From contig CAZFAZ010000059.1 of NCBI GenBank assembly GCA_964517155.1, positions 1 through 48,235 on the forward strand: a stretch of DNA of 48,235 nucleotides. Direction: 5' to 3'. Below are positions 5,728-43,895 of this stretch, one piece after another. Position 1 is the stretch's first letter. Every line of letters starts with the position of its first letter. The position numbers and the translations under genes are program-made. This DNA is from an uncultured Thermoplasmatales archaeon (GTDB taxonomy: Archaea > Thermoplasmatota > E2 > DHVEG-1). The notes under the pieces are model-generated. The model had not been told where the DNA came from. It made no database searches and worked only from the letters and a program-made list of their open reading frames with translations.

Positions 5728-5760
5728 ATATCTCTATAGAATAACCAGAGGAAAAATAAA

Positions 5761-6726: not shown

Positions 6727-6746
6727 TATCCTTAGATGTGTTTTTT

Positions 6747-9227: not shown

Positions 9228-9275
9228 ATTTTATTAAACCATAAACATGATAAACAGTCCTTAAATTATAATGCT

Positions 9276-10370: not shown

Positions 10371-10373
10371 TCT

Positions 10374-11102: not shown

Positions 11103-11328
11103 TTTCTATGTTGAAAGCGTATATAAAAAGTTAATCAAAGAAACCGATTTTTAGACGAAATTTATTTTAATTTATATGCTAGAATATTTTTAGTATGCGT
11201 GAAATCCAGTTTTTGTCGTTTTCCACCAAAAATAAAACAAAATCACTTTTTTTAGTATTTTGTAGGAATTTCTTGATAACGGGCTTTATGTTGTAATAAG
11301 ATATTATTAAAATAGAGGCAAAAAAAGA

Positions 11329-12261
11329 ATGACTGAATGTAAATGCCCAAATATTTACAATACACCAAAAATCCAAGAATATAATTTTACTGAGAAAATC
11401 AATAGTTTTAAGAAATTCGTATTAAATGAATTTATTCATGGAGGTCACTTAGCTGCATTAAGTGTTATGGCAATTGCTCTTTCAGCTATACTTCTTTTCA
11501 ATATGTCAATAAAATTCGAATTGCTTCTTACCGTTTATCTATTAACATTATGTGTATATAGTTATGATCACTACAAAGAACTTAAAGAAGAGTCATTAGG
11601 AAATAAAGATAGATTAGATCATCTTAAGAAATATAATAAAATGCTTCCTTTGTTACTACTTTCCTATGGACTAATATTTTTGTTTGTGCTTTTTTATTTT
11701 GGAACATTTGGTAGTATAATAATTGGATTACTGCTTTTATTTTCGGGGTTATTATATACTGAAAAATTCAAAAAAATAACGGAAAAAATAGCAGGATTTA
11801 AGAACATATACACATCTTTTTCGATTTCATCATTAGTTATTTTAATTGCCGTCTACTACTCTGCATCTATCATAACTTGGTCATTAATTCTAATTTTTAC
11901 AATTCTTTTCCTACGCTTAATGATTAATACGAGTTTTTGTGATATAAAAGATATTGATTCCGATAAAAAAAATAATCTGTTAACTTTACCAATAATTTTT
12001 GGTAAAAGTAAATTTTTAAAATTTCTTCATTTCATTAATTTATCATTTATTATTCCAATAATTTTTGGAGTATACATTGGAGCGCTACCAATATTCTCTT
12101 TATTTTTGCTAATATCCTCAATTTATAGCTTTTTATACGTTTATAAGACAAAAAAAGAAACAATAGATGTAAAATCAATTTCATCAACTCTTGTTGATGG
12201 TGAATTTATAATATGGCCAGTTTTACTTTTCCTAGGAAGAATTTTTATATTGACAATATAA
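11329..12261 (+). CDS. UbiA-superfamily prenyltransferase-like membrane protein, paralog 1
   Basis: About 8 transmembrane segments. Second Asp-rich motif NTSFCDIKDIDSDKKNNLLTLPIIFG. The first-motif position reads YSYDHYKELKEE rather than NDxxDxxxD. Confidence 0.7.
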   Translation: MTECKCPNIYNTPKIQEYNFTEKINSFKKFVLNEFIHGGHLAALSVMAIALSAILLFNMSIKFELLLTVYLLTLCVYSYDHYKELKEESLGNKDRLDHLKKYNKMLPLLLLSYGLIFLFVLFYFGTFGSIIIGLLLLFSGLLYTEKFKKITEKIAGFKNIYTSFSISSLVILIAVYYSASIITWSLILIFTILFLRLMINTSFCDIKDIDSDKKNNLLTLPIIFGKSKFLKFLHFINLSFIIPIIFGVYIGALPIFSLFLLISSIYSFLYVYKTKKETIDVKSISSTLVDGEFIIWPVLLFLGRIFILTI

Positions 12262-12316
12262 AACAATAAACATATTAAAAAAATAACATTATTTATATAA
12301 TGAATTGCATATTAAT

Positions 12317-13171
12317 ATGTCGATGAAATACTCAAATATCATTTGGAACGAATTCATCTATGGCAGTCATTGGGGCTCACTGAATGCTATAGCTATTTCA
12401 TTATCAGCAATTCTTCTTCTTAATATTAGTATTAAATGGGAGTTTTTACTCATATCATATCTACTTACTCAATGTATCTACTCTTACAACCATTGCAAAG
12501 AAATAGAGATAGATTCTATTTCAAATGTTCCAAGAGTAGAGCATCTAAAAAGATACAGTAATGTCCTTCCATTATTGACTGGTTTTTATGGCGTTTTGTT
12601 TTTTAGTTTATTGATATATTTTGGTAATAAAGAAAGTATCTTTTTTGGTGGGTTCTTATTGCTACTAGGGTTATTATTTACAATAATTGGTAAGAAAATT
12701 TCCAAAAAGATAATTGGTTTTAAATCTGTTTATACTGCTTCCGCATGGGCCTTTTTAATTATTTTTACAGCGATCTATCATTCATTTCCAATAAATAGTG
12801 CAATATTAATAATTTGGATATTTGTTTTTCTAAGATTAATGATTAACACAAGTTTCTCAGATATAAAAGATATTGAAGGCGATAGAAAGGAAAAGCTCAT
12901 TACTTTACCAATGATTTTTAAAAATCCTAATAATTGGTTAAATTTCCTTCACTTGTTGAATATAATTTCATTTACTCCTTTATTATTTGGAATACTTCTA
13001 AACATTATTCCAATATATGCCTTATTTTTATTTTTTACATATTTTTATACTTTCTATTATTTACAAAAAGCAAAGATAAAGAATAGTGACAAAAACTCTT
13101 TATATAACGTACTAGTGGATGGAGAATACTATTATTGGCCATTTCTATTACTTTTAGGATTAATTATTTAA
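12317..13171 (+). CDS. UbiA-superfamily prenyltransferase-like membrane protein, paralog 2
   Basis: Colinear with the upstream gene at roughly 40% identity by eye. NTSFSDIKDIEGDRKEKLITLPMIF. The first-motif position reads YSYNHCKEIEID. Confidence 0.7.
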   Translation: MSMKYSNIIWNEFIYGSHWGSLNAIAISLSAILLLNISIKWEFLLISYLLTQCIYSYNHCKEIEIDSISNVPRVEHLKRYSNVLPLLTGFYGVLFFSLLIYFGNKESIFFGGFLLLLGLLFTIIGKKISKKIIGFKSVYTASAWAFLIIFTAIYHSFPINSAILIIWIFVFLRLMINTSFSDIKDIEGDRKEKLITLPMIFKNPNNWLNFLHLLNIISFTPLLFGILLNIIPIYALFLFFTYFYTFYYLQKAKIKNSDKNSLYNVLVDGEYYYWPFLLLLGLII

Positions 13172-13238
13172 TATAAGGCCACTCAAAGCAAACATATATA
13201 TAGTATAATATAAATAAAAATATTGAAGGCGATATAGT

Positions 13239-14363
13239 TTGATTAACGATATTGTAATTATAGGCGGGGGTCCTGCAGGATCTTATCTCGGGTATCTTCT
13301 TGCAAAAAATGGCAAAAAACCGATTATTTTTGATCATTCACACCCACGAGAAAAACCATGTGGTGGAGGCATTACAGCTCTTGCAATAGAAAAATTTCCT
13401 TTCGTACAAAAATTCCCTGGAGAAAAGATACCAGAACATGGAATTGAACTTATTTCTCCAGATGGCTTAAGTGTTATGTCTACAGGCAAAAATCCTTCTT
13501 TTACATTCCCAAGGTTACTATTTGATAAATTTATCTTAGATGAAGCTGTAAAAGAGGGCTGCAAGCTTATCGAAGAAAAAGTAATTGATATAGAATTGAA
13601 AAATGATATATGGGAGATTAAAACTAAAAAAAAGAGTTACAAAGCTAAAATTATAATTGGTGCAGATGGAGTGAATAGTATTGTCCGTAAAAAAATCCTT
13701 AGTCCCATACCACAAGAAGATATTGGTATCTGTTATGGTTGCTTTGCAACGAGCAAAAAAACTGAGATACCACGTATCAAATTTTTAGAAAACAAACAAG
13801 GATATATATGGTGTGCAACACGTAATGACCACCTTAGCATTGGAATCGGTGCAGAATCATCAAATCCAAAGAATATTAAAAAAATTTTTAACGATTTTTT
13901 ATCGTCATATTATCCCGATATCACAATTACTTCCACATGGGGTGCAAAGATTCCACATGTAAAAAACCATAATTTTTACAAAACTAAATGCTCAGGTAAA
14001 AATTGGATATTAATTGGCGATGCTGCGGGACATGTTGATTCAATTAGTGGTGAAGGGATAACGTATGCGTTATGGTCTGCAGAATTAGCAAGTAAAGCAT
14101 TAATTAATAATGATCCTCTCTCCTACGATAAACTATGGAGAGACAGATATGGGGAAGAATTAATTGCTAGTTGTAAAATGAGAGATGTCTTTTATAACCC
14201 CCGGTTACTTAAATTTGTATTAAAACTAGCAAAGGAAAATAAAACAATTTCAACATTGTTATATGATGTTATGAATAGTCAACAACCTTATCAAAATCTA
14301 ATCGGAAGAGCCATCATTGATTTTCCTAAAATATTCAAAGATTATGTCAAAAGTCGTATTTAG
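13239..14363 (+). CDS. Geranylgeranyl reductase family FAD-dependent oxidoreductase
   Basis: IIGGGPAGSYLG (dinucleotide fold), PREKPCGGGI, GADGVNSIVRKK and GDAAGHVDSISGEGITYA, all hallmarks of the GGR family. TTG start. Confidence 0.85.
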   Translation: MINDIVIIGGGPAGSYLGYLLAKNGKKPIIFDHSHPREKPCGGGITALAIEKFPFVQKFPGEKIPEHGIELISPDGLSVMSTGKNPSFTFPRLLFDKFILDEAVKEGCKLIEEKVIDIELKNDIWEIKTKKKSYKAKIIIGADGVNSIVRKKILSPIPQEDIGICYGCFATSKKTEIPRIKFLENKQGYIWCATRNDHLSIGIGAESSNPKNIKKIFNDFLSSYYPDITITSTWGAKIPHVKNHNFYKTKCSGKNWILIGDAAGHVDSISGEGITYALWSAELASKALINNDPLSYDKLWRDRYGEELIASCKMRDVFYNPRLLKFVLKLAKENKTISTLLYDVMNSQQPYQNLIGRAIIDFPKIFKDYVKSRI

Positions 14364-14400
14364 TTACTTTATTTTTCTATCAATATATTTTTTTCAGAAT

Positions 14401-14443
14401 TTCCAGAAAACTTTATAACTCCAGAATATATTTATTTCTGGAA
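14401..14443 (+). promoter_or_regulatory. 9-nt inverted repeat TTCCAGAAA ... TTTCTGGAA bracketing a TATA-like TTTATAAC; candidate operator/promoter of the KaiC-like operon
   Basis: Arms at 14401..14409 and 14435..14443; TATA-like box at 14412..14419; GGAGGGG Shine-Dalgarno at 14463. Confidence 0.35.
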
Positions 14444-14476
14444 AGTATTATATTCGAAATTGGAGGGGTATAATTG

Positions 14477-15232
14477 ATGGATAACTTAGAATTTGAAAAC
14501 GCTGGAAGAATCAAATCAGGAATAAGTGGATTAGATGAATATATTCAAGGAGGTTTTCCAAAAGGTAGTACTATTGTTGTTACTGGTTCAGCAGGTAGTG
14601 GAAAAAGCATTTTTGGAATGCAATATTTGAGTGAAGGATTAAAAAATAATGAGAAATGTTTATACATAAACGTTGAACAAACATCTGAGAAAATAGTTTC
14701 CCAGGCAAAACATTTTAATTGGGCTTTTGACCAATGGGAAAATGAAGGCAGACTTAAAATTTGGTCTATCAGTCCACATGATCTTTTTGAAATGAAACAT
14801 TTAAACAATATTAAACAAGACATCATGGAAAATAATTATGACAGAGTTGTAATTGATAGTATAACATCTTTAGTATATGCACCATATACCGCAAATAATA
14901 TTGTAAACCTTGCAGATAAAGGTTTAGGGCCTCGCTCCATTATTGAAATGAGTCGAGCTGAAGTAATAGCATTAATAGATTTCTTACAAAGCCATAATAT
15001 AACTACAGTTGTAATATCTCAAAAAATTGATGGAATGCCGGGAGATACCTACGATATGACTAGTGAATTCAAAGCAGATGGGTTACTTCTTATGGGCGCA
15101 AAAATCCTTGGAAAAACATCAAATAGAACTTTACAAATCAAAAAATTACGTAAAACAAAGATCGATATAATTCCACTTAGCTTTGACTTTACAGATACAG
15201 GTATCGCTATACTAAAAAATGAAGAAGTTTAA
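14477..15232 (+). CDS. Single-domain KaiC-like / RecA-superfamily ATPase
   Basis: Walker A VTGSAGSGKSIFGMQY; Walker B-like YDRVVIDSITSL. The length (about 250 aa) and layout match archaeal KaiC/RadA-like ATPases. Confidence 0.85.
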   Translation: MDNLEFENAGRIKSGISGLDEYIQGGFPKGSTIVVTGSAGSGKSIFGMQYLSEGLKNNEKCLYINVEQTSEKIVSQAKHFNWAFDQWENEGRLKIWSISPHDLFEMKHLNNIKQDIMENNYDRVVIDSITSLVYAPYTANNIVNLADKGLGPRSIIEMSRAEVIALIDFLQSHNITTVVISQKIDGMPGDTYDMTSEFKADGLLLMGAKILGKTSNRTLQIKKLRKTKIDIIPLSFDFTDTGIAILKNEEV

Positions 15233-15234
15233 AT

Positions 15235-16368
15235 ATGCCTGTAAAAGATAGAGTAGTCACTTGGTGGATTCAAAATATAGTTACTCCTCAAAGAGAAATA
15301 ATAGATAAGCCAGGTTTTGTAATAACTACTTTTACAGAAAAAGACCAGATGACTTACTTAAGAGATATTTTTTTTGCAGAAGAGCTCTTTGAATTAATTG
15401 AAAATAAAATCGTACAAAATTATGGAGATCAAGGAAAACAAACATTGTATTCCGCAGGTAAAAAAAATGGCTATCTATATGCCTCAATCTCAAATTTTCC
15501 CAATATAAAAGAAAATTCTAAAAAAACAGTTTCGGACTTTGCCTATTTATTTGTAAGATATTGTGAAGGTGTATTTGCTCAAAAAGCCAAACATGAAATA
15601 GATATAGATAAAAAGATATTTTCAATGGATCTTGAGGATTATATAGTATGCCGTCATAATGGTCATGGTTATATAATGAACGATGGCGGAAGTGCAGGCA
15701 TCTGGGCATATTTAATGCAGGACAAATTAATAGAAGGAGTACAATTAGAGTGTCAAGGTAGAGGCGATGAAAGATGTTTTGTAATGTGTGCTCCAAAAAA
15801 AGAACTTCTTACTAAGAAAGATGAAATTTTTTATGAAAACAATCTAACTAATCAGAAATTTGATGAAATTTATCAAATAAGAAATGAAATCCGTGAAGAT
15901 ACTTATGCTCAACTATCTCTTAGAGATATGATTGATGCTGGTTTTTTTGATTATAAAAAAGGAATACTTTCATATAAAAATAGTAGATTTTTTGGTTCGG
16001 AATCGCATATATTTTATATTATCGAAAATGAAATATCAAAATTAGAAGGTGGAGAACAACTATTGTTTGATATTTGTGTTGAATATGGTAAATCTCTTAG
16101 GAAACTATATGGAGAAAGAGATTATCAAAAATTTATAATGGATTTTTTTTCTGCTTTGGGTTTTGGTGATATAACTTTTTTAGATTCAAATACTATTGTT
16201 GCAAGTTATTATCCTTGGACAATATTTTCAGAAAAATCAAAATATATAATCTTTAGAGGCATATTATCAGGAATAGTATCTGATTCACTTGAAAAAAAAG
16301 TAGAATTTAATGATTATAAAATTGATGTTGAAGATTTTTTGACATTAACTATCAAACAAAAAAATTAA
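15235..16368 (+). CDS. Hypothetical protein with an N-terminal V4R-like (4-vinyl-reductase-type) domain and a degenerate second copy
   Basis: The start is 2 nt after the KaiC-like stop. CRHNGHGY...GGSAGIWAYL...EGVQLECQGRGDERCFVMC resembles the V4R C-x-G...E-x-x-C-x-x-G-x-x-x-C-x-F pattern. Confidence 0.45.
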   Translation: MPVKDRVVTWWIQNIVTPQREIIDKPGFVITTFTEKDQMTYLRDIFFAEELFELIENKIVQNYGDQGKQTLYSAGKKNGYLYASISNFPNIKENSKKTVSDFAYLFVRYCEGVFAQKAKHEIDIDKKIFSMDLEDYIVCRHNGHGYIMNDGGSAGIWAYLMQDKLIEGVQLECQGRGDERCFVMCAPKKELLTKKDEIFYENNLTNQKFDEIYQIRNEIREDTYAQLSLRDMIDAGFFDYKKGILSYKNSRFFGSESHIFYIIENEISKLEGGEQLLFDICVEYGKSLRKLYGERDYQKFIMDFFSALGFGDITFLDSNTIVASYYPWTIFSEKSKYIIFRGILSGIVSDSLEKKVEFNDYKIDVEDFLTLTIKQKN

Positions 16369-31077: not shown

Positions 31078-33117
31078 TTATATGTCAACTGGATTCATTA
31101 GTGGATAATTGTCTGCATTATATGAATTATCACCAATTCCATCTCCATCATTATCTACGCCAGCATATTTATCATAATAATTCCCAACTGAACCATTATC
31201 CCATCTATTTGTACCATCGTCTGTCTCTTTTAGGAATATATAATCAATAAAATTATTTGAAAATATTGTATTATAATATCCTGAGATACTAACACCATAA
31301 TAATTTGAAGTAAGATTGTTATTTTTTATTGTATTATTTGAGCTGCTAACCTTTATTCCAGCACCACCACTTCCTGAAGATATTTTGTTATTATTAATTG
31401 TATTATAATCAGAGTAATATACCAGTTCAATTCCATTTTTGTTATCTGTTAATACATTATTTTCGACTACGTTATTGTTGCTATATGCGTTTAGATAGAT
31501 GCCTTTTGACTCTGTAATTGCAGATGGTCCATTAATATAGGCAAATACATCATAGTTAATCTTGTTATTTCTAATAGTGCTATTCTGAGTATTAAACAAC
31601 CCTATACCTGTAAATGCGTTATTTATTTCTTGATTCTCAACAATTATGTTATCGCATCTAATAAGTATCACTTGACCTGCATCTTCATTAACAACCGTGT
31701 CTGATTCATCTTCTAAATAGATTAGAGGTTTTCCATTGACAAAATTATTTTGAACTGTATTGTCTATTGTGTAAAAATCAATTTCTAAACCATAATTATT
31801 GAAATTATTATTGATAATGATGTTGTTTGTGCTATTACTATCATAGAAGAAATGGATTGAACCATTAATAGTGTTATCTTGTATGGTGTTATAGTCAGAC
31901 TTATCTAGTAATAAGTTACCCAAATTATTATTCGAAATAGTATTGTAAAAAGAATTGTAAAATCTGATACTTCTGGATTTACAATCAATGAACTCATTGT
32001 TTTGAATGATATTATTGTTTACAGACCAAAGCATTATACTTTCTCTACAATTTTTAAAATCATTATTTTCAATTAAGTTATCATCTGAGCTAGATATGGT
32101 AAGCCCCGATGTAGATATATCTGAAAATTGATTATTTGAAATGATACAATCTTCGGAATTAATAAGATAAAGACCATATGAAATATATTCTATTTTTTGA
32201 TTTTGAACTGTTATGTTGTCAGAATTAATTATTATGATTTGACCTACTTCTTCATCAACAATTAAATTGGACTTATTTTCTAGATATATAAGCTCTTTTT
32301 CTCTTACATAATTATTACTAACATCGTTGTTAGATGAATCTGATAAATGAATACCATTATTTTCAAACGTGTTTCCTATAATGCTATTTTTACTTGAGTC
32401 TATGATAAACAGACTTTCGTCTGTTGTCGATATTTCATTATTTAAGATTTTGTTGTCTAATCCATTATTTATAATCATAATTCCATAATTTTCTCCGGTT
32501 AGGATATTATCATATATTGTATTATTTTTACAACTATTATTTAGTTTTATACGAGAACCAGAAAATTCATTATTTGAAATATTGTTATTATCTGAAAAAT
32601 CTAAGTATACTCCAGCATCATTCAAATCAACAAAATCATTGTTAATGATTTTAGTATTATTTGAATAGTTTAGATAAATGCCATAGTAACTTTTTGAGAA
32701 AACATTATTTGATATTTCATTGAAATTTGAATTGATTTGTATGCCACAATTATTATTTGGATGTCGGGAGTTAACTTGTAAATTTCTAATAGTAAAATTA
32801 CTGATTTTTACATCATCAGAATTGATTGTAATAGCACTTCCGGTACTCCAAATTGCTGGAAACATGCCATCAATAATTGTATTAGCTTTATTATTGCCAT
32901 TTAATGTTATCGATTTATTAATGAATATGGTTTCATTATAAACTCCAATTGGGATATTAATTACATCGCCCGGAGATGCACTGTCAATTAATTGTTGTAT
33001 GCTCATTGTTTCTGTTGTATTATAAGAATCTTTAGGTGTTTCTTCTTCAACACATCCGACAAAAATTATAACAATTAATAAAACGACAAAAAATACCGTA
33101 AATATTTTTCTCCTCAT
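31078..33117 (-). CDS. Secreted parallel beta-helix (NosD/PbH1 repeat) protein, probable lipoprotein
   Basis: The N-terminus FFVVLLIVIIFVGCVEEE looks like a lipobox. About 25 beta-helix coils rich in N-x-I/V-x-x-N. C-terminal GNYYDKYAGVDNDGDGIGD motif shared with 20353..21186. No PGF-CTERM. Confidence 0.75.
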   Translation of the reverse strand: MRRKIFTVFFVVLLIVIIFVGCVEEETPKDSYNTTETMSIQQLIDSASPGDVINIPIGVYNETIFINKSITLNGNNKANTIIDGMFPAIWSTGSAITINSDDVKISNFTIRNLQVNSRHPNNNCGIQINSNFNEISNNVFSKSYYGIYLNYSNNTKIINNDFVDLNDAGVYLDFSDNNNISNNEFSGSRIKLNNSCKNNTIYDNILTGENYGIMIINNGLDNKILNNEISTTDESLFIIDSSKNSIIGNTFENNGIHLSDSSNNDVSNNYVREKELIYLENKSNLIVDEEVGQIIIINSDNITVQNQKIEYISYGLYLINSEDCIISNNQFSDISTSGLTISSSDDNLIENNDFKNCRESIMLWSVNNNIIQNNEFIDCKSRSIRFYNSFYNTISNNNLGNLLLDKSDYNTIQDNTINGSIHFFYDSNSTNNIIINNNFNNYGLEIDFYTIDNTVQNNFVNGKPLIYLEDESDTVVNEDAGQVILIRCDNIIVENQEINNAFTGIGLFNTQNSTIRNNKINYDVFAYINGPSAITESKGIYLNAYSNNNVVENNVLTDNKNGIELVYYSDYNTINNNKISSGSGGAGIKVSSSNNTIKNNNLTSNYYGVSISGYYNTIFSNNFIDYIFLKETDDGTNRWDNGSVGNYYDKYAGVDNDGDGIGDNSYNADNYPLMNPVDI

Positions 33118-36266: not shown

Positions 36267-39200
36267 TTATCCCAATACCAGACCTGCACACCATTGTTCT
36301 GTTACAGTTAATTCGAAATTTACACTTAACCATCCCGGAAATCCAAAACCTGAAATATCTGGTAGGAATAAACTTGCCTGTATCTCAAAGTACGTTGTAT
36401 CGATACAAAACATAAAACCATCACCCCATGGTTTAAATTCAAACGCAACACTACCATCAATTATAATATTTGCGTTAACTGAATTAATCTGCCAATCACC
36501 AATGGTAAAGGCAATAGAAATATCCCCCAGTTCAATAACGCTTTCACTTTCTATATGAATACCTGTTTCATTTACAAAAATATCTACAGTTCTATTGAAA
36601 AATATCTTCTCAGTATAAAAATAGAAAGTATCTGTCTGTATCTCAAAATCTGTTATATTGATGTTTACATTTTTATATCCAAATAGATCTCCACCGATGC
36701 TCAGATTATTTTTTGATATTCCATCGTTGAAATCCCAGTCAAACCATATAGTTCCATCCATTTGACCGTCAATGTCTATATCAAAGTTACCTGCAACTGA
36801 GAAGTTTGTATATTCATCGATATTTAAGTTTATATCTATATCTACATCTGTAAATGTATCATCAACATATATTGTAAGATTACCGCTTCTCCCTTTTCTC
36901 CAATGAATACCACCGGTTATTACCTTACTTATTTCTATAGTTATATTATCTCCATATTTGAATCTAAAGTTATCAACAGTAAAATCTGCAGAGCCTTCGA
37001 CTGAAAAGTTGCCGATATTTCCTTTTGTAAAGTTTATATAAATATATGATTCATTTGTATCAAAGATGAAATGACCATTAATCTCAGCAATTACTCCATT
37101 TATATCAGTCTGGAAGTTATTGAGATGTATCTCATTTGAGCCACCTATTGCGATACTTACATTTCCATTTCCCTCTTCAGTTACTGTAACATTACCGTTT
37201 CCAGGTAAGCTTGGATTTTGTATTCCAACATGAACTGAAACTTCAGCCACATTTACTGGATCATCTATATCAGTAACCTCGATTATTCCAGCAAGATTTG
37301 CATCTTCTTCATTTGGTGCATTGACTGTAAAATAAACTGTTTCTGCTCCACCCGGCAGTATTGTTCCATCAGTTTTCTGAAAACTATAATTGTCATTTGA
37401 AACGTTTGTTATACTCCAGCCAAGAGCTTCGGCTTTGTTATTATGAATCCAAATTGAGGAGGTTTTTTGTTCACCAGGGCTTAAATCCGGAAGATAAATT
37501 GAAGAAGGAAAAACAGTAAGTGATTGCTTTATAGTCATAGGTATGCCAGCACCATCTCCTCCATATCCTGTATAGTTTATATTATCCGCCGAAAAATATA
37601 TTGTACTATGTTCTTTGTGATCAAGAGGAGGATAAAATGATGTATTAACCCTAACAGTTTCTTGAGGACCTAATATTCCCATCTCTGGTTCAACAATTGG
37701 ATCCATTCCTGTACTGTCAAATAATGCTGGTATAATAGCAGCCTCCCATTCAAGATTATAGTTTTCCTCTGCCTTATTACGTATTGTAAACCATGTATGA
37801 ATTCTTCCATCGCCTTCAACATCATCATATGTAAAAGATAATGGTCCATTTTCTGATATCTCAAGATAAGCTATTTTCTTGATGACTTCAAATGACAATA
37901 CATCGTATATAGGGGCAACTGAAGAATCAGAAGGTGTAACAATTACGGAGGCATTATAAGAACCTAAATTGAAAATATGATCGCCTGTAACTATTCTTGT
38001 ATTATCTGTAGTTTCTTCGTAATATGTTCCATCATCAAAAGAAACATTATATGTAAAAGGACCTATACTTGCACTACTCTCACCTATTGGTGGCGCATAC
38101 CACACTTCAAATCCTAAACTTTTGTTATCTCCATTTGTAGTGGTTATAAATTCATCAGCTATATCTGGAGGATTCATAAAAGATGCTTGGCACAAAAGTA
38201 TTACCTGACCAGAAGTATTAAACGGACTAATTGGAATCCAATCAGTATCATTTCCTTTAACTTGTACAACCGCAGAAATCTCTCCACTAACATTCAAATA
38301 AAGATCTGAATAGGTCGTAGTATCATCACTTTTGTTTATATTTATACTAAATTCGATATGCGCATTTAGTTTACCTGCAAATCTTAAAGAATCTGCAAGT
38401 ATAACCACTCCACTTACTTCTTTTGCATCTATAACAAAAGATTTGGTTCCATCACTTGATTCAGATTTACTGAACCATACATTTAATGCACCTATTAACT
38501 TAATCAGTTCCTTATCATTTGCTTTTATAGTTATCCAACTGGAACTATAACCAAAAAGATATATATCGCCTGTATTTTGGAGTAAAAAATCGATTTCACC
38601 GGGTTTTAAAACCAAGGAAAAATCAGACAAATCAGCAGGCAAATTCAAAATTGGAATAACAACATTTTCAACTGTAATAATTGTTTCTTCTTCAACAGTA
38701 CCTCTTAGATATACATAAGTAAATCCAGCTATATCTAAAAATCCTTCTAATTGTGCAGTTCCATTTATTGAAAGATTAGACATTGGGATTAAAATTCCTG
38801 CTAAATATAAGTTCAAATCTCCAATAAAACAACTGCTGTGGTCAAAATCAAAAACCGGTTGGCTTGTTGCCATGTTTAAACCTAAACCTACACTTCCACC
38901 TGTTCCACCACCAACAAAATCATAAACGAAAATTTGTAAAACTCCAGGGTAACCCAAATAAATTGTACCTGCCGTAATTTCATTTTCAGATATGATTGTT
39001 ATCATAAAAGGTGTGTCTTGTGATATATCAACATCAAATTCAATAGTTGTAGAACCATCAATATACAATGCCTCAACATTCAACTCGATAGGTAAAGTTG
39101 GAACGGGTACTACAAACCATAAAGAGTTTATTAAAATATTTGAATTACCAATAACTTGACCGCTAAGCAAAACAGTATCATTAACAGATAAAACTTCAAT

Positions 39201-41744
39201 TTTTCCATTTCCATCAAATGTTATATCCATATCAGCACTAACACCCAACGGCTGTGAAATAGAACTGTAGACACTCAAATCTGAAATTATGATATCTGTT
39301 AAATCAACATCTGCATAAAGTGAGATATTTCCATCGATGCTGCTGAAATTAACATTTAAACCGCCATTTATAAAAAGCCTGCTCATCGAGATATCTACTA
39401 ATGTTTTATATCTAAACTCAAAATCAGTAATATCAATAAAACCTGTTGCATCTGCTTCAAAGTCTCCATCGATAGATGTAACTCCTGATTCATTCCAAGC
39501 AATATTGATTACTCCAGAAGCTGTGGCATCAAGACCAACTTGTAAAGAACCTTTCAAAGTTATATCAAATAAATCAGTGATATTTATATTTTCAATGTTA
39601 ACATTTGCAGAAATCATATTATCATTAAGATGCAACATTAAACTACCAGTTTTTCCAACAGTATTTAACTCAAAGTTTATAGATATCTCAGGAATAGATA
39701 TTTCTGCCTTATCTTTAATCCATAAATAAAAATCAGAAAGACCAACAAGAGCACTACCATTTATGTTAAAACTAGTGTTTGCATCAATTATCTCCCATGA
39801 AACATTAAAAAGATCACTTGTTGTTTTAAACTGAATCGTACCAGAAACACGACCTACTACACCACTTTCATCACTATATGTTGAGTTAAATGAAAGAATA
39901 GCCGAACTGTTACTCTTAATTACAATATACCCACTTGAAAGATCGCTTGCTACATGCCACTCAACAATTGATACACAAATGGAAAACGGATACTCTTTTA
40001 CAACACTTCCAGAGGTGCTAATACTTTCACGAGCAAATACAAAATTATTAAATTTTAACAAAAGATTTTCTATTTCTGCACCGCGGTCTATTTCAAAACG
40101 ACAAATACCAGTTATATTATTTCCTTGTTTTTCAACTGAAAGACTAAAACTTATAAAACCATAGGTTTCTTTTATAAGACTATCCATTGAAACAGAAAAA
40201 TTCCCACCTATAATCTCTGAAAAACCCGTTATATCTACATCATAAAGTTCAAATGATTTACCAGATAGATATATCTCTAATTCGCCATCATATAAATCAT
40301 CAAAGAAAATCTCAAAAGGACCATCGCTAAGACGAGCAATATTAAAAGAACCAGAAAGAGTAGAAAGAAAACTGCTTATTGACTCATTTAAAACAGAAAT
40401 AGAAAACGACACAAATAAGTCAAACTCGTTTCTATTAATCCTAAAATAACCTTCTGATAAATCAAGCTCCAAAGAAGCATCAATAACTGTTGCATCAGGG
40501 CTTATGCTAAAATCAGCATTACCGCCAGAATCACCTTCAAGATGAATATTAAAGCTTACACCTGCACCTTCTGTATAAATACTAGCGTTGAAACTACCTT
40601 GTTTTAAAAGCAGGAAAGGATCACGATTCCATTCAAGAATTGCTGTTGTAAACATATCTGAGAAATATACTTTGTTTTTAGGGTTATCAATATTATCACA
40701 CAGACCAATTTCCGCGATTGCTGAATCTGTGCTAAACTCAGCCTTACCCTGCTGGCCAAGTCTTAATGAAAAACCAACATAACTAGGTAAATCAAGTGCA
40801 TAAGCATATGTTTTATTTTCGCCTTTTATATGTGCAAGATATAAATCAACATTCGTCTGAGAAGAAACAGTTCTTTCATACTCAAAAAACGAAACACCAG
40901 AGCCTCTGCTTCTTTTAAATGTTATTTCAGATGAAACAACAGGATCGTACGACACCTTTGAAAAAACCTCTGATCTGTCATCTGCTTCTGTAAAGCCAAA
41001 TATAAGATTAAGTTTAGCAGAGCCTTCTGAAACAGCATCTGTATCTATTGCAAAAATATGATCAGGTGTTTTTTTAATAGAAAAAATATGAGGCACTAGT
41101 TTATATGTTACAGAACATTTCTCAGGAATATTTTCCCCTTCAGCAGATTCATACCCAAATTCTAGTTTATCATCTGTTAGATTTTTAGATAAAATTCCAG
41201 GGAAATTTAACTCAGACATAGCCTTAAAATACGCGTTTTTGTCAAGGTCATCAAAACCTGAAAGCTGATTTATTGATATTTTATAATTTATTGAAAGAGC
41301 AAGTGATGATTCAATACCCGGATAAAGTTGTAGTAAAACTACAATATCGTCTTTTGAATCATCATTTAAATCAATTTTTGTTTGCCTAAAAAGTCTTAAA
41401 GTATCTGTTTTTTCATTACCATTATAGTTTGTATAAAATTCAAGACCTGTTTTAATAATACTAAATAAATTCATAGTTTTGTAAAGGGAAAATTGTTTGA
41501 GTTGAATATCTGATTCATCTGAAAAATATTCAACTGTGTTTAGCTGATTTTTAAAGTTTTGTATTTTTTCTTTTAAATCCTCTATTTTTTCTTTAAAAGC
41601 TGATTTTAGGTTTAAATTATTTGTATCAATTTTTTTGTTATTGTTATAAAAAGCACTTGCTACCGCAGAGAATCCTGAAAGTACTAACACTATTACAACA
41701 AGAAAACTAACTACTCTTTTTGATTTTTTTTTCAGCATATGCAT
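36267..41744 (-). CDS. Giant (1825 aa) secreted or cell-surface protein, mostly unassignable
   Basis: Uninterrupted 5.5-kb frame. Signal peptide VVIVLVLSGFSAVASA, a short coiled-coil-like segment, dozens of N-x-S/T sequons, and PKD/Ig-like stretches near aa 1150-1400 (YNVSFDDGTYY). No PGF-CTERM. Confidence 0.8.
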   Translation of the reverse strand: MHMLKKKSKRVVSFLVVIVLVLSGFSAVASAFYNNNKKIDTNNLNLKSAFKEKIEDLKEKIQNFKNQLNTVEYFSDESDIQLKQFSLYKTMNLFSIIKTGLEFYTNYNGNEKTDTLRLFRQTKIDLNDDSKDDIVVLLQLYPGIESSLALSINYKISINQLSGFDDLDKNAYFKAMSELNFPGILSKNLTDDKLEFGYESAEGENIPEKCSVTYKLVPHIFSIKKTPDHIFAIDTDAVSEGSAKLNLIFGFTEADDRSEVFSKVSYDPVVSSEITFKRSRGSGVSFFEYERTVSSQTNVDLYLAHIKGENKTYAYALDLPSYVGFSLRLGQQGKAEFSTDSAIAEIGLCDNIDNPKNKVYFSDMFTTAILEWNRDPFLLLKQGSFNASIYTEGAGVSFNIHLEGDSGGNADFSISPDATVIDASLELDLSEGYFRINRNEFDLFVSFSISVLNESISSFLSTLSGSFNIARLSDGPFEIFFDDLYDGELEIYLSGKSFELYDVDITGFSEIIGGNFSVSMDSLIKETYGFISFSLSVEKQGNNITGICRFEIDRGAEIENLLLKFNNFVFARESISTSGSVVKEYPFSICVSIVEWHVASDLSSGYIVIKSNSSAILSFNSTYSDESGVVGRVSGTIQFKTTSDLFNVSWEIIDANTSFNINGSALVGLSDFYLWIKDKAEISIPEISINFELNTVGKTGSLMLHLNDNMISANVNIENINITDLFDITLKGSLQVGLDATASGVINIAWNESGVTSIDGDFEADATGFIDITDFEFRYKTLVDISMSRLFINGGLNVNFSSIDGNISLYADVDLTDIIISDLSVYSSISQPLGVSADMDITFDGNGKIEVLSVNDTVLLSGQVIGNSNILINSLWFVVPVPTLPIELNVEALYIDGSTTIEFDVDISQDTPFMITIISENEITAGTIYLGYPGVLQIFVYDFVGGGTGGSVGLGLNMATSQPVFDFDHSSCFIGDLNLYLAGILIPMSNLSINGTAQLEGFLDIAGFTYVYLRGTVEEETIITVENVVIPILNLPADLSDFSLVLKPGEIDFLLQNTGDIYLFGYSSSWITIKANDKELIKLIGALNVWFSKSESSDGTKSFVIDAKEVSGVVILADSLRFAGKLNAHIEFSININKSDDTTTYSDLYLNVSGEISAVVQVKGNDTDWIPISPFNTSGQVILLCQASFMNPPDIADEFITTTNGDNKSLGFEVWYAPPIGESSASIGPFTYNVSFDDGTYYEETTDNTRIVTGDHIFNLGSYNASVIVTPSDSSVAPIYDVLSFEVIKKIAYLEISENGPLSFTYDDVEGDGRIHTWFTIRNKAEENYNLEWEAAIIPALFDSTGMDPIVEPEMGILGPQETVRVNTSFYPPLDHKEHSTIYFSADNINYTGYGGDGAGIPMTIKQSLTVFPSSIYLPDLSPGEQKTSSIWIHNNKAEALGWSITNVSNDNYSFQKTDGTILPGGAETVYFTVNAPNEEDANLAGIIEVTDIDDPVNVAEVSVHVGIQNPSLPGNGNVTVTEEGNGNVSIAIGGSNEIHLNNFQTDINGVIAEINGHFIFDTNESYIYINFTKGNIGNFSVEGSADFTVDNFRFKYGDNITIEISKVITGGIHWRKGRSGNLTIYVDDTFTDVDIDINLNIDEYTNFSVAGNFDIDIDGQMDGTIWFDWDFNDGISKNNLSIGGDLFGYKNVNINITDFEIQTDTFYFYTEKIFFNRTVDIFVNETGIHIESESVIELGDISIAFTIGDWQINSVNANIIIDGSVAFEFKPWGDGFMFCIDTTYFEIQASLFLPDISGFGFPGWLSVNFELTVTEQWCAGLVLG

Positions 41745-42052
41745 TTTCTCCCCGAATTTAATTTTACTTTTTAAATATTATAATAATAATTATGTATAAC
41801 ATCTTATATATACTTTTTTATAAAATCAATATTTTAAAATGCTAAAATTATAGCTTTTATTCTAGTATTTATGTAATAACCTATTATATATATTCTAAAG
41901 ATATCGGGTTAAAATGTCAAAACGTTAAATTCAATTTTGTTTCAAAGTATTACCTCTAAAAAAAGATTTTAGTTAGAAAATCCTCATCCATCTGCCACAA
42001 CAGTATAAAAAGGGGTGAAAATGCTGTGCCAAAACCCTTCAAGAAAGAACAG

Positions 42053-42126
42053 CGGGCTTGAGGGGATTCGAACCCCTGGCCAATCGGTTAAGAGCCGATT
42101 GCTCTACCTAGCTGAGCTACAAGCCC
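42053..42126 (-). tRNA. tRNA-Lys (anticodon CUU), no encoded CCA
   Basis: A manual cloverleaf fold gives: acceptor GGGCTTG/CAAGCCC, D stem GCTC/GAGC, anticodon stem ATCGG/CCGAT with loop CTCTTAA, T stem AGGGG/CCCCT with loop TTCGAAT, discriminator G. Confidence 0.9.
42097..42126 (-). repeat. att-like direct repeat copy 1 (tRNA-Lys positions 1-30, inside the intact gene)
   Basis: GATTGCTCTACCTAGCTGAGCTACAAGCCC on the plus strand. Confidence 0.8.
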
Positions 42127-42219
42127 ATCTTGTAAATCGTATGGAGAAACAGGATTAGATATTTAGGCTTAACGATACCAAACGGCTCATAATATTTAAT
42201 ACCATTTCAGCATGTTTAT

Positions 42220-43551
42220 TCATTTGATTATTTCCCAATAACCACCTTTTGCAGGGCCAACTCTCTTAAGAAATTCTTTTTCTTTTAATTTAGCGATATT
42301 CTTTTCTACAGCAGTAGTGGACAAACCAAGTAATTTAGAAAGCTTAGAAATAGTTACAAATCTGTCATCCTTTATGATTTCTAGGATTTTCTCCTCATTT
42401 TCTCCCAACTTTCTCCCAACTTTCTCCCAACTTTTCTCCGTACTTTCTCCTTTTGGAGCAGAAAATGTTATATGAAAATGATGATCTGTTGGTTTGATCT
42501 CAACTTTGTTATTATTTTTCTTGCATTCCTCTTGTATCCTTTTTATTCCTGTACCGACTTTCTCCATAAAATACGTACGAGACAGAAGATCTGCAAGAAG
42601 TGTATTTCTAGGTTTACTTACCGTTCCAAATTCTTCCTTTTTAAGATATGGAACAAGACCACCAGGGTTATTAATATAAATAAAATCCCTCATTTTCTCA
42701 ACAGCAACTTCACCACTATCAAAATAATCACGATGAACAATGGCATTTACAACTGCCTCACGATATGCATCTTTTGGAAATTGGGGAAATTCCTTTCGAT
42801 ACAGTCCATCAATCTCAAATCTGACAGGAACTTGTTCTTCTAGATAGTTTACAGCAAACTCAATATTACCAATTATGCCCCTATCCACCTCTTTTTTATC
42901 AAGGATATGAACACGATCATTGCCTTTAAAAAGAACACAACGAATACGAGAAGTCATAAGATACTTGAATGGTTTTTTTGCAAAAAACAAAACACCAGCA
43001 TTTGTCATTCCTTTTTCAGTTAAAACATGTAGACTACGAAGAATATCATCTCTTTTAAGATTCCTAGAGATACGTGCAAGTTTGAGATAATATTCAAATT
43101 TTTCATCATCAAAATCTGAAAAATCAAAGTTTTCACATATTTGCTCATCAAAACGAATTTTATTTTCATATATACAGAATTGGATGATTTCATCACGTGT
43201 AAGTTTTTGAGAATTATAACCAAGTCTAAGATAAAAACCACTTGAACATTGATATGGTTTATCTTTTCCTTCTTCAACTTCGATAATCAATATATTTTCA
43301 TATTCTTCTAAATCTACAAAGATTTTTGGATCACAATTCTTTCCGATATCGATAATCTTGGACTTCAGATCATTTGTGGTTTTTATACCTTTTACAATGT
43401 TTTCATCAGTAACTCCAAGAAAAATTCTCCCACCCGAAGCATTAGCAAAAGCCACTATGTCCTTAACAACATGTTTACTAAAATTTTCTTTAAACTCAAT
43501 GAATTGTCCTTCACCTTCTTCCAAGATCTGCTTTAAATCATCCTGATTCAT
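42220..43551 (-). CDS. AlbA_2 (Schlafen-like) domain / HATPase_c_4 / C-terminal wHTH protein (the class often annotated as RecG-like putative transcriptional regulator)
   Basis: N-terminus EGEGQFIEFKENFSKHVVKDIVAFANASGGRIFLGV (AlbA_2 pattern). YREAVVNAIVHRDY...INNPGGL (HATPase_c_4 pattern). C-terminal ILEIIKDDRFVTISKLSKLLGLSTTAVEKNIAKLKE (wHTH). Confidence 0.8.
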   Translation of the reverse strand: MNQDDLKQILEEGEGQFIEFKENFSKHVVKDIVAFANASGGRIFLGVTDENIVKGIKTTNDLKSKIIDIGKNCDPKIFVDLEEYENILIIEVEEGKDKPYQCSSGFYLRLGYNSQKLTRDEIIQFCIYENKIRFDEQICENFDFSDFDDEKFEYYLKLARISRNLKRDDILRSLHVLTEKGMTNAGVLFFAKKPFKYLMTSRIRCVLFKGNDRVHILDKKEVDRGIIGNIEFAVNYLEEQVPVRFEIDGLYRKEFPQFPKDAYREAVVNAIVHRDYFDSGEVAVEKMRDFIYINNPGGLVPYLKKEEFGTVSKPRNTLLADLLSRTYFMEKVGTGIKRIQEECKKNNNKVEIKPTDHHFHITFSAPKGESTEKSWEKVGRKLGENEEKILEIIKDDRFVTISKLSKLLGLSTTAVEKNIAKLKEKEFLKRVGPAKGGYWEIIK

Positions 43552-43721
43552 GTTACTGATAACCTTCTTTTTTCAAATCTGTAGATTATATCTAATATAG
43601 ATATGTAAAAACATCTTATAAAACTCATCATTTGTTGAATGATTGCAATATTTTCAAAATCTTTTCGTTATACAATATAACGAAATATTTCTTTAATTTA
43701 ACAGAAGAGCAGATTGAATTA

Positions 43722-43751
43722 GATTGTTCTACCTAGCTGAGCTACAAGCCC
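43722..43751 (-). repeat. att-like direct repeat copy 2 (truncated tRNA-Lys 5' half with its own promoter-like region)
   Basis: GATTGTTCTACCTAGCTGAGCTACAAGCCC, matching copy 1 at 29/30. The 17-mer AGGCTTAACGATACCAA at 43789..43805 is identical to 42165..42181 and sits at the same offset. Confidence 0.8.
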
Positions 43752-43895
43752 AAAGAAAAAACATAGGAAGAAACAAGAACGATTATATAGGCTTAACGAT
43801 ACCAAGCGCATCAAAAAAAGAATGACTCTACATTACAAATAATTGCTATTATAAAAAAACTGATTATGGTTAAATCAAATTGAGAAAATGAGGTT

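Follow-up and report, generated by a model that had tools for sequence, protein, structure and literature searches.

Islet A, as we call the segment enclosed between the first two of three tRNA-Lys core repeats, is best explained as a promoter-carrying, recombinase-less tRNA-Lys cassette, moved by a related serine recombinase and bearing as cargo a Schlafen protein with a role in defence or addiction, a reading to which we assign a probability of about 0.55. The window in which it lies, i.e., the whole stretch of DNA that was analysed, measures 48,235 nt and derives from an uncultured Thermoplasmatales archaeon.

Anatomy of the tRNA-Lys Hotspot

The features of the hotspot are collected in Table 1. 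The 24-nt sequence TCTACCTAGCTGAGCTACAAGCCC has exactly three matches (42103-42126, 43728-43751 and 48091-48114; 0 expected by chance), and the repeat around it extends to 28 nt, which correspond to tRNA-Lys positions 1-28, with one mismatch in copy 2. The spacing from copy 1 to copy 2 is 1,625 bp, and islet A is bounded at both ends by direct 28-nt core repeats at a site-specific target. The first-pass annotation had described the segment between these copies as holding one gene and no integrase, and both statements proved correct: there is a single real gene, and the nearest recombinase is the serine recombinase of the neighbouring element, islet B. The hypothesis that islet A is an autonomous serine-integrase element or a provirus was rejected, since 42127-43751 encodes no recombinase. 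An Rfam scan of 41700-48235 (E<=0.1) returned the tRNA as the sole match, so that the arms hold no known ncRNA. KptA is the native upstream gene, and the chromosomal limit of the insertion hotspot lies at the 3' end of this gene.

Table 1. Features of the tRNA-Lys hotspot, in coordinates of the window
Feature	Position	Strand	Basis or remark
tRNA-Lys(CTT), intact	42052..42126	-	ARAGORN; Rfam tRNA 72.9 bits; only intact one found
Core copy 1	42099-42126	-	tRNA nt 1-28; attR side of islet A
Right arm of islet A (U1), upstream of rebuilt tRNA	42127..42196	-	TATA-like box ~42159-42166
Cargo gene, 443 aa	42220..43551	-	Pfam SLFN_AlbA_2, HATPase_c_4, wHTH; sole islet A cargo
11-nt tandem repeat, 5.6 copies, GAGAAA-rich	42388..42450	-	TRF; encodes GHKL-wHTH linker
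Islet-A-specific 5' region of cargo gene	43552..43656	-	Sequence; presumed promoter and leader
Left arm, 67 nt, conserved	43657..43723	-	Common to recombinase-less islets with different cargo
20-nt palindrome TTCGTTATAywrTATAACGA	43664-43684		Within 67-nt left arm
Core copy 2	43724-43751	-	1 mismatch; attL of islet A and attR of islet B
Right arm of islet B (U2)	43752..43816	-	Homologous to U1
PGF-pre-PGF / CTERM surface protein, 941 aa, islet B cargo	43896..46721	-	NCBIfam TIGR04213, 1.5e-32
Serine recombinase of islet B, 314 aa from M29 of ORF	46780..47724	-	Pfam Resolvase + Recombinase
Ribbon-helix-helix (CopG-like), 61 aa, islet B	47852..48037	+	Pfam RHH_1; divergent from recombinase gene
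Core copy 3	48087-48114	-	Outermost attL, beside native flank
KptA/Tpt1 (RNA 2'-phosphotransferase), 3' end	48153..48235	-	blastn vs L002 KptA, 82%

From its sequence, the U1 arm is presumed to be the replacement promoter of the rebuilt tRNA-Lys. It is conserved in loci L001, L002, L003 and L118, it is 75% identical to U2 of islet B in the window, and arms of this type are 75-93% identical to the right-end arm of recombinase-bearing elements; upstream of tRNA-Lys at empty sites, the U1 motif is absent. It had been claimed that the islet brings both the promoter and the 5' half of the tRNA. A conserved arm with a TATA-like box, missing from empty sites, is indeed there, and its promoter role is what we infer from it; a 5' piece of the tRNA is duplicated as well, but it comprises the first 28 nt (acceptor strand and D-arm), not a full half.

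The left arms of islets A and B both start with gctaat and, in the window, diverge after 6-9 nt. The palindrome of the islet A arm sits 40 nt from the core. It is confined to islets, with one occurrence in the window (0 expected) plus 10 loci, and it is also found in cassettes devoid of the Schlafen-wHTH protein. Scanning IMG/VR with the cassette left-arm pattern gave 0 matches, that is, no viral carrier of the cassette arm in that collection; the scan with the tRNA-Lys core gave 1 match.

The Cargo Protein

In the 443-aa protein, Pfam detects an SLFN_AlbA_2 domain (PF04326, 1.1e-21, residues 14-117), a GHKL domain of the HATPase_c_4 type (PF13749, 4.3e-15) and, at residues 384-431, a C-terminal wHTH (HTH_24, 9e-07; HTH_11; HTH_DeoR), while PADLOC matches the protein to its Schlafen-pAgo and Aga models. 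Following the definitions Ex4(E/D)xK and (S)AFAN given in PMC13056530 and bioRxiv 10.64898/2026.05.29.728809, the Schlafen Ex4ExK motif (E14-GQFI-E19-F-K21) and the AFAN box (V33-AFAN37) are present. Residues E14, E19, K21 and N37 are invariant across 60 homologs, as are those of the GHKL ATP motifs (E265, N269, N295, G297 and G333-T334-G335). The AF2 model (pLDDT 85) was matched by Foldseek to the N-domains (nuclease domain) of SLFN14, 13, 12 and 11, with E from 2e-4 to 2e-3, and further to 3LMM, to His-kinase CA domains and to the MarR/ZitR wHTH. The PDB sequence search matched only 3LMM, an uncharacterised member of the same family, and wHTH regulators; it was insufficient to reveal the link to the Schlafen nucleases, which required the fold search. 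Judged by these domains and motifs, the protein is a stand-alone 'Schlatpase'-wHTH prokaryotic Schlafen.

Its domains have diverged to different extents. In L101 and L118 the body of the protein is 91-98% identical, versus 52-55% for the wHTH, and the linker encoded by the tandem repeat is the breakpoint of this module swap among relatives. Neither an antitoxin nor a second gene was found in islet A, as the other ORFs are antisense inside the gene, or short and unconserved; a 27-aa ORF upstream of the cargo gene (43552..43656) is not conserved in L002. A type II toxin-antitoxin module was rejected, because the gene stands single with no adjacent partner.

Related Elements at the Same Site

Other recombinase-less islets occupy the same tRNA-Lys site. 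Those with HEPN-like/Polbeta-NTase (MNT) cargo were found at 7 distinct loci (L045 duplicates L044 and was counted once), and their first 95 nt (core + 67), palindrome included, are 88-90% identical to islet A of the window. An islet with a wHTH and a DUF6036-nucleotidyltransferase has the first 64 nt in common with islet A, which cover only the first 36 nt of the 67-nt arm and leave out the palindrome.

These sister islets bear on whether the Schlafen protein might serve the mobility or regulation of the cassette, for instance as a directionality or att-binding factor, rather than act as an RNase effector. A wHTH protein encoded beside att sites, with the palindrome 40 nt from the core, would suit such a role; nevertheless, we consider it highly improbable, given that islets of the HEPN-like/MNT type lack this protein and yet possess the same arm, that homologs occur widely among bacteria and archaea at a distance from att sites, and that neither nuclease motif (Ex4ExK, AFAN) varies. 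We also asked whether a Schlafen that cleaves tRNA might be functionally tied to the tRNA-Lys beside it, and found no support for this: unrelated cargo lies in the same position, which indicates that the location is set by the specificity of the recombinase.

The recombinase of islet B falls into the CcrB/XisF-like group of NCBIfam and into PHROG 95 (integrase), and has homologs of 297-315 aa; the 61-aa RHH gene adjoins the recombinase gene in L044 and L047 too. This enzyme is a candidate helper for islet A. Moreover, circular 10.4-kb contigs, taken as episomes, encode a recombinase 58-62% identical to that of islet B and contain an attP that combines a promoter-like arm with tRNA-Lys nt 1-21 and gcta. 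By tblastn, neither the Schlafen gene nor HEPN-like/MNT cargo was found on these episomes.

The right arm of islet A in L003 is identical to the islet B arm of L044 at 56/60 positions and to the islet B arm of the window at 53/60; within the window, the right arms of islets A and B match at just 42/60. With a recombinase reading more than ~10 nt outside the core, the A and B sites of the window would thus be non-equivalent. In L044 a cassette and B stand in tandem with the cassette ahead of B, the opposite of the window, suggesting that the two inserted independently.

Occupancy and Spread of Islet A

Among related genomes, KptA precedes tRNA-Lys in 80 species representatives, and in 45 of the 80 the native site is empty, with a spacer of ~49 nt (median) between KptA and tRNA-Lys. 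Within this set the AlbA_2 islet is intact in L101 only and truncated in L118, which retains just the last 165 codons of the cargo gene; further copies are those of the window and of four metagenome contigs (L001, L002, L003 and L142). The islet is therefore patchy and far from syntenic in all relatives, with the site empty in 45/80, and homologs of its gene do not lie uniformly in conserved core contexts. The 1,625-bp islet is found directly beside KptA without B in L003, beside a decayed B in L002, in which the left core copy is mutated and the recombinase gene is reduced to its 3' 254 nt, and beside an intact B in the window; the cassette thus exists in relatives both with and without islet B (the window compared with L003). 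In the three fully bounded copies (window, L003 and L002) its size is 1,624-1,625 bp, with the same boundaries.

From the core to the tRNA 3' end the copies are 89-94% identical, versus 66-78% for adjacent genes. Between hosts, the dS of the cargo gene is 0.22-0.50, to be compared with 1.2-4.2 for the flanking DUF2582, GT4 and GH57 genes, i.e., 5-10 times below the neighbouring core genes, and its dN/dS is ~0.07. Taken together, the low dS and the dN/dS value indicate that islet A spread horizontally and that its gene is under selection.

L142 is a contig of 1,650 nt with the core at both ends and a length matching islet A. Its reading as a circular cassette was not retained, because the 24-nt terminal repeat is shorter than the k-mer overlap of the assembler and variable strain flanks would explain the ends equally well; as a trace of a circular cassette, the contig is at most suggestive.

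The first-pass annotation had left open whether the islet is a remnant or a minimal cassette. An inert deletion remnant, vertically inherited, with its gene domesticated as an ordinary transcription regulator, would be in keeping with the wHTH in which the protein terminates and with the decay that does occur at this locus (the last 165 codons in L118; the mutated left copy and the 3' 254 nt of recombinase in L002). We regard this as very unlikely: size (1,624-1,625 bp) and boundaries are the same in the window, L003 and L002, and the length of L142 agrees; the dS lies 5-10 times below that of the core neighbours, with dN/dS ~0.07; the islet is missing in 45/80 related species; and the catalytic motifs of both RNase and ATPase are invariant. 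Uniform size and boundaries, the low dS and the arms in common with recombinase-bearing elements favour, rather, a cassette moving as a unit.

At most loci with recombinase-less islets there is no recombinase within 10 kb, so that a helper would have to be transient. This distribution would also suit a spread by homologous recombination (for example after DNA uptake or cell fusion) through the tRNA and the 28-nt repeat, in which no site-specific recombinase takes part and the att-like repeats are the fossil of one ancient integration, and the near identity of the tRNA (75 nt) and core across hosts would suit it as well. However, on the left the usable homology amounts to 28 nt only, with the flanks beyond it 66-75% identical, cassette and B follow each other in a different order in the window and in L044, as for independent site-specific insertions, and the arms are held in common with autonomous elements, including free circles carrying attP. 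Such a route is, in our opinion, unlikely.

Proposed Mobility

We infer, instead, that islet A is mobilised by a recombinase of the islet B type. In this Thermoplasmatota archaeon, islet A would have entered tRNA-Lys(CTT) within nt 1-28, just downstream of KptA. Its right end would have brought the promoter-like arm and a tRNA 5' segment, so that the tRNA stays intact after insertion, and the displaced original 5' segment would be the left repeat. The islet would pass from one genome to another as a unit of fixed size (1,625 bp), most likely through core-core recombination catalysed by the serine recombinase of a related element (islet B, or the free 10.4-kb episomes), and it could move alone or jointly with B as a composite. 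The crossover is predicted within tRNA-Lys nt 8-21, around the TAGCTCAGCTA dyad. The junction of the circular cassette would read U1 right arm, core and left arm 'gctaattcaatctgc', and the junction after loss of islet A would read U2 or KptA, core and 'tcggctcttaacc'.

More tentatively, islet A may be one of a Thermoplasmatota family characterised by the tRNA-Lys core and the 67-nt palindrome arm, with interchangeable immunity or TA cargo (Schlafen-ATPase, HEPN-like/MNT, wHTH/NTase), which would hitch-hike on the ~300-aa serine recombinases of 4-10-kb integrative episomes as an archaeal counterpart of integron cassettes, CIMEs or satellites, the palindrome coupling cargo expression or recombination to the helper. 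We hold this wider picture to be possible, and less probable than the mobile cassette itself.

Proposed Function of the Cargo

The likeliest role of the cargo protein would be defence, exerted by cutting tRNA or other RNA under the control of ATP. The N-terminal Schlafen RNase lobe (Ex4ExK, AFAN box) would be the effector, the GHKL ATPase would, by analogy, drive oligomerisation into the active nuclease, and the swappable C-terminal wHTH would act as a sensor or autoregulator; ATP-gated cleavage of tRNA or other RNA would then result in abortive-infection-type defence or in addiction to the cassette. The SLFN+GHKL 'Schlatpase' of SLFN-pAgo has been reported to bind ATP, to form tetramers and to cut tRNA (bioRxiv 10.64898/2026.05.29.728809). 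The pSlfn-HisKinase-HTH proteins represent 19.2% of prokaryotic Schlafens, 69.6% of pSlfn genes lie <=10 kb from defence genes, and two pSlfn-HisKinase proteins expressed in E. coli gave no defence versus the phage panel used (PMC13056530). Around homologs 50-60% identical to the protein studied here (17 loci, no control set), the neighbours included PIN, Zeta, AbiEii, MNT, HicAB and paralogous Schlatpases, and also polysaccharide genes. The earlier suggestion of a stand-alone defence or addiction function is strengthened by the TA-like sister cassettes with the same left arm and by the Schlafen catalytic motifs; the accompanying remark that these proteins have no established function still applies to this architecture, and since 2025-26 no longer to the Schlafen family.

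A variant of this proposal is that the gene serves above all to stabilise the hotspot or to addict the cell to it, encoding a self-regulated toxin that kills when lost or de-repressed, rather than an antiviral sensor-effector. The sister cassettes do carry TA-like pairs (HEPN-like/MNT; wHTH/DUF6036 NTase), and a toxin with a fused wHTH could control its own expression via the conserved palindrome. On the other hand, no antitoxin gene and no conserved small ORF were found in islet A, the palindrome occurs also in cassettes without this wHTH protein, and the swapping of the wHTH on bodies 91-98% identical looks more like the diversification of a sensor. A chiefly addictive function appears to us rather improbable, and defence is preferred.

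Comparison with Known Systems

The cassette type and the protein family are both already known; their combination in archaea is new. The protein resembles the pSlfn HisKinase-HTH or Schlatpase-HTH proteins (Perez Taboada et al. 2026, PMC13056530; Kuzmenko et al. 2026, bioRxiv 10.64898/2026.05.29.728809) in the order SLFN_AlbA_2 - PF13749 GHKL - C-terminal HTH, and the Schlatpase in Ex4ExK, (S)AFAN and the GHKL E..N pair, E265/N269 here corresponding to E314/N318 in RzAgo. The gene lies in a tRNA insertion hotspot whose other cargo is TA-like, a setting that may resemble the variable, defence-associated surroundings of pSlfn genes. Only Schlafens fused to DUF262, Ig-like, Csx15 or pAgo have been shown to defend, and for the stand-alone architecture no phenotype has been demonstrated. 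What sets the present case apart is that an archaeal, tRNA-targeting cassette carries the gene alone, and that the wHTH is exchanged among near-identical bodies.

As for the cassette, the closest likeness is with the streptococcal CIMEs (Pavlovic 2004, Bellanger 2011, as reviewed in PMC5704250), which are described as bounded by attL and attR, without integration genes, and found in tandem with a related autonomous element of the same specificity, so that composite or trans excision is expected. Likewise, islet A has no integration, excision or transfer genes, and its arms are related to those of an autonomous element found in tandem. By contrast, the host is here an archaeon, a ~300-aa serine recombinase takes the place of a tyrosine integrase, insertion is at the 5' rather than the 3' end of the tRNA gene, and the islets, unlike sporadic products of decay, recur as a family in which the 67-nt arm is shared and the cargo can be exchanged. 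Insertion at the 5' end of a tRNA implies that the element must also bring a promoter.

Insertion into tRNA genes, with partial tRNA repeats at the ends, is shared with the Prochlorococcus tycheposons (bioRxiv 10.1101/2020.12.28.424599) and the Islander-type tDNA islands (PMC4383910), in which serial insertions also push older elements outward and leave degenerate ones. Those elements, however, mostly use tyrosine recombinases (910/937), are larger and have replication modules, and recombinase-less cassettes of fixed size with a common arm are not a described feature there. Small serine recombinases marking defence loci place, similarly, a recombinase beside defence cargo, and a Schlafen-domain protein has been validated as antiphage; these loci belong to Bacillota, and the available part of that report (PMC13552941) describes neither a tRNA att structure nor recombinase-less cassettes. 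Finally, HEPN/MNT and AbiE-type TA modules hold the equivalent cargo position in the sister cassettes at the same site, whereas islet A has a single, partnerless gene and the protein families are unrelated. In the literature searched, we found no description, for these archaea, of serine-recombinase elements hitting the tRNA 5' end with a replacement promoter.

Significance

Stand-alone Schlafen-GHKL(-HTH) proteins account for more than half of the >100,000 prokaryotic Schlafens, none of them with a demonstrated function. Here, one such Schlafen stands by itself on a small mobile unit, as its only cargo, and this unit spread recently between diverged archaeal genomes, under strong purifying selection. 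The same arm and site carrying modules of TA/Abi type make this unusually clean comparative evidence for a self-sufficient, selectable trait of immunity or addiction, and the 443-aa protein, with its swappable wHTH, is a compact candidate for biochemistry. More generally, cassettes mobilisable in cis or in trans, as known in bacterial ICE systems, would shape archaeal genomes too.

Organization of Islets A and B

The window, with a G+C content of about 30%, holds a single tRNA gene, tRNA-Lys(CTT), whose nucleotides 1–28, GGGCTTGTAGCTCAGCTAGGTAGAGCAA, form a core found again in two further copies; a 24-nt sub-string of it occurs 3 times in the window, against 0 expected by chance. Copies 1 and 2, 1,625 bp apart, delimit islet A. 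The first-pass annotation had described islet A as a one-gene, AlbA_2-type islet, and this was borne out by a single convincing ORF with the Pfam domains described, the other ORFs of the islet being antisense to the cargo gene or short and unconserved. It had also placed there the 5′ half of the tRNA and its promoter: the duplication is real but covers nt 1–28 rather than the full half, and a conserved arm is present, on which the presumed promoter is based.

Islet B, between copies 2 and 3, comprises three genes. The mechanical ORF of its recombinase opens at a TTG; all homologs begin 28 codons further downstream (MLYDFDAF...), and M29 is the probable true start, for a protein of 314 aa like the homologs. 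At ~314 aa there is no room for the zinc-ribbon/coiled-coil part that large serine integrases have. The window closes with 83 nt from the 3′ end of the KptA/Tpt1 gene.

Features of the window and of related loci (L-numbers)
Feature	Coordinates	Strand	Description
tRNA-Lys(CTT)	42052..42126	minus	
Core copy 2	43724-43751		one mismatch
Core copy 3	48087-48114		exact
Islet A cargo gene	42220..43551	minus	443 aa; SLFN_AlbA_2, HATPase_c_4, winged HTH (Pfam)
Islet A palindrome	43664-43684		TTCGTTATAywrTATAACGA
Linker repeat, window	42388-42450		11-nt unit
Linker repeat, L101	11950-12070		11-nt unit
Linker repeat, L118	10905-11010		12-nt unit
Islet B surface protein			PGF-CTERM, 941 aa
Islet B serine recombinase	46780-47808 (mechanical ORF)		Resolvase + Recombinase domains
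Islet B RHH gene			divergent from recombinase gene
Surface protein gene	36267-41744		1,825 aa, secreted/surface, no Pfam match
NosD gene	31078-33117		679 aa, NosD/beta-helix
L101 extra genes	12213-14494		482-aa SWIM-zinc-finger protein; 242-aa protein
L044 NTase islet	8400-9640		1.21 kb; MNT-type nucleotidyltransferase with extra C-terminal domain
L078 islet	5029-6968		1.9 kb; 311-aa wHTH protein + DUF6036 nucleotidyltransferase
L121 islet	10654-11753		one gene, 329-aa membrane protein
L111 cargo, same hotspot	10627-15291		subtilase-like 1,047-aa + 414-aa secreted pair
L047/L048 B-type element (GCA_964597365.1)	7627-12055		recombinase 85% identical
Native KptA-core spacers	L074:2637-2706; L063:10675-10714		…taatcgtt.ttgtttct…
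Episomal attP	L138:4994-5021		promoter-like arm, GGGCTTGTAGCTCAGCTAGGT, gcta

The Site in Related Genomes

A KptA-alignment scan of species-representative genomes gave 80 loci, nearly all labelled Thermoplasmatota, Thermoplasmatales or Thermoplasmata MAGs, including SG8-52-3 and SM1-50. The site was empty in 45, with 36–247 nt (median 49) between KptA and a lone intact tRNA-Lys(CTT); 18 were occupied or otherwise arranged, and in 17 the contig end was too near to call the state of the site. The native order 3′ of the site is tRNA-Lys, DUF2582, GT4, GH57, GT4, debranching enzyme and phosphorylase.

The AlbA_2 islet is rare among relatives and occurs in several states. The check proposed in the first-pass annotation, namely whether the cassette occurs with and without islet B, was run, and islet A was found without it in L003 (KptA, core, islet A, tRNA) and after a decayed B-type element in L002, in which the recombinase gene is cut down to its final 254 nt, the cargo is of NosD type and the core is mutated. 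In L001 islet A and the tRNA are followed by syntenic downstream genes; in L101 the intact AlbA_2 gene adjoins KptA; in L118 it is reduced to the last 165 codons, and L142, a contig of 1,650 nt, is exactly the islet with the core at its bounds. L044/L045 have a B-type element and lack the AlbA_2 gene.

The nucleotide identity of islet A to the window was 94% in L003, 93% in L001 and 89% in L002, with the high-identity stretch running from the core to the tRNA 3′ end, and neighbouring core genes on the same contigs were 66–78% identical. Synonymous divergence of the cargo gene was 0.22–0.50, versus 1.2–4.2 (saturated) for DUF2582, GT4 and GH57, and its dN/dS was ~0.07. Islet A thus moved as a unit between genomes that had already diverged, and its gene is functional. 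On these sequence comparisons islet A is young and its gene under selection. Overall, the cautious interpretation originally given to the islet is supported.

The 1,825-aa gene directly downstream of the tRNA is missing in L001, L003 and L044, where DUF2582 comes after the tRNA, so that variability extends to both sides of the tRNA. The sequence immediately 3′ of the tRNA is common to the window and L118. Relative to L001 and L044, the NosD gene is an insertion into the glycogen-type cluster, where it separates GH57 from the second GT4. In L101 two genes following the AlbA_2 gene replace the right (tRNA-side) arm and the tRNA, a further insertion or rearrangement on a contig that stops short of any tRNA.

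Sister Cassettes Share an Arm with Islet A

Seven separate loci (L044, of which L045 is a duplicate; L066, L074, L084, L107, L110 and L111) carry between two core copies a 1,206–1,218-bp islet, the NTase islet, coding for a HEPN-like protein of 125 aa (Rx5H motif, no Pfam match) and a 204–206-aa Polbeta/NTP_transf_2 nucleotidyltransferase (PADLOC candidates PDC-S09 and PDC-M05A). Its first 95 nt (core + 67 nt) are common to islet A, with 88–90% identity, and include a palindrome restricted, among all sequences compared, to recombinase-less islets. NTase islets have a second copy, and in their promoter region the two flank a TTTAAATA box that immediately precedes the start codon; this pairing suggests an operator. 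Two native KptA-core spacers resemble the element-borne promoter arm, and the sequences hint that this arm was originally captured from upstream of a host tRNA-Lys gene.

Other cargo was found at the hotspot. The L078 pair resembles the AbiE arrangement, but an AbiE match was absent; the L121 islet has a right arm of the same type, and a promoter-like right arm ends each of the L078, L121 and L111 cargo stretches. The L047/L048 element has extra cargo in the stretch from core to RHH gene, namely one radical SAM/SPASM and one DUF7523 protein. At most recombinase-less islets, no recombinase homolog was present within 10 kb.

Recombinase-Bearing Elements and a Possible Crossover Site

The reconstructed attP of islet A of L003 and of the B-type element of L044 agree at 56/60 positions of the right arm and in the core, and their left arms share the first 6 nt (gctaat) and then diverge; the right arms of A and B in the window match at 42/60. 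The order is KptA, cassette, B, tRNA in L044 and KptA, B, cassette, tRNA in the window, and this opposite order indicates independent insertions.

Recombinase homologs, 58–62% identical, lie on ~10.4-kb contigs (L138, L139, L140), each with ~22 small co-oriented ORFs and almost no Pfam matches. L138 and L139 have 141–144-nt terminal repeats and are circularly permuted relative to each other, and so are circular episomes. At least 10 further homologs were on 10.2–10.8-kb contigs. The ~10.4-kb contigs probably represent a family of small Thermoplasmatota plasmids or viruses that has not been described before.

The episomal attP mimics tRNA-Lys nt 1–21, and its promoter-like arm matches the NTase-islet right arm at 41–43/60. 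Left core copies often depart from the tRNA at positions 22–28, resembling the episomal attP, and tRNA-side copies are always identical to the tRNA; this pattern suggests a crossover within nt 1–21, near the TAGCTCAGCTA dyad.

The Cargo Protein

More than 1,400 homologs were found in archaea and bacteria, usually misnamed 'RecG helicase' or 'DNA-binding protein'. Across 60 aligned homologs (52–82% identity) the invariant residues were E14, E19 and K21 (Ex4ExK motif), N37 in VAFAN (Schlafen box) and, in the GHKL motifs, E265, N269, N295, G297 and G333-T-G335. The AlphaFold model (pLDDT 85) best matched 3LMM (E=1e-20), itself an uncharacterised member of this family, followed by SLFN14, 13, 12 and 11 nuclease domains, histidine-kinase CA domains and MarR-type wHTHs; PADLOC matched the Schlafen-pAgo model and Argonaute-associated proteins.

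Between the window and L101/L118 the body of the protein is 91–98% identical, versus only 33–55% for linker and wHTH, and the break falls at a GAGAAA-rich tandem repeat. The alignments thus depict a modular wHTH, swapped among relatives exactly at the linker repeat. The repeat encodes the linker ahead of the wHTH; because 11 nt do not divide into whole codons, the unit is translated in all three frames, and gain or loss of a single unit would cut off the wHTH.

It has been reported that Schlafen-HisKinase-HTH proteins make up 19.2% of prokaryotic Schlafens, that 69.6% of pSlfn genes lie ≤10 kb from a defence gene, and that in E. coli DUF262- and Ig-like fusions were defensive and the tested HisKinase fusions were not (PMC13056530). 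The Schlafen+GHKL pair has been named 'Schlatpase', and its members are mostly small proteins that may or may not end in an HTH; in SLFN-pAgo, ATP binding leads to a tetramer with a two-lobed Schlafen nuclease, which cleaves tRNA (bioRxiv 10.64898/2026.05.29.728809). Cash proteins also cleave tRNA (PMC13462974). In our survey of distant homologs, which had no control set, neighbourhoods were variable, with many TA genes (HicAB, PIN, Zeta, AbiEii, MNT, paralogous Schlatpases, MORC-like GHKL and large helicases among the neighbours), and often lay inside polysaccharide gene clusters. The islet A protein adds a member to a known, functionally uncharacterised class and, by analogy with the published Schlafen nucleases, is most likely an ATP-gated RNase, whose wHTH would act as sensor or autoregulator.

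A Probably Mobilisable Cassette

CIMEs keep their att sites, have lost the recombination genes and are mobilised once a related element integrates alongside (PMC5704250), a concept that fits islet A and its sister cassettes. That islet A is mobilised by an enzyme, that its arm acts as a promoter, that its protein cleaves RNA and that it has any role in defence are inferences. Compared with known CIME and tDNA accretion, here the host is archaeal and the serine recombinase small, the target is the 5′ part of the tRNA, so that a replacement promoter is needed, and a shared arm accompanies exchangeable immunity-type cargo; the archaeal cassettes are more regular in appearance than sporadic decay products would be.
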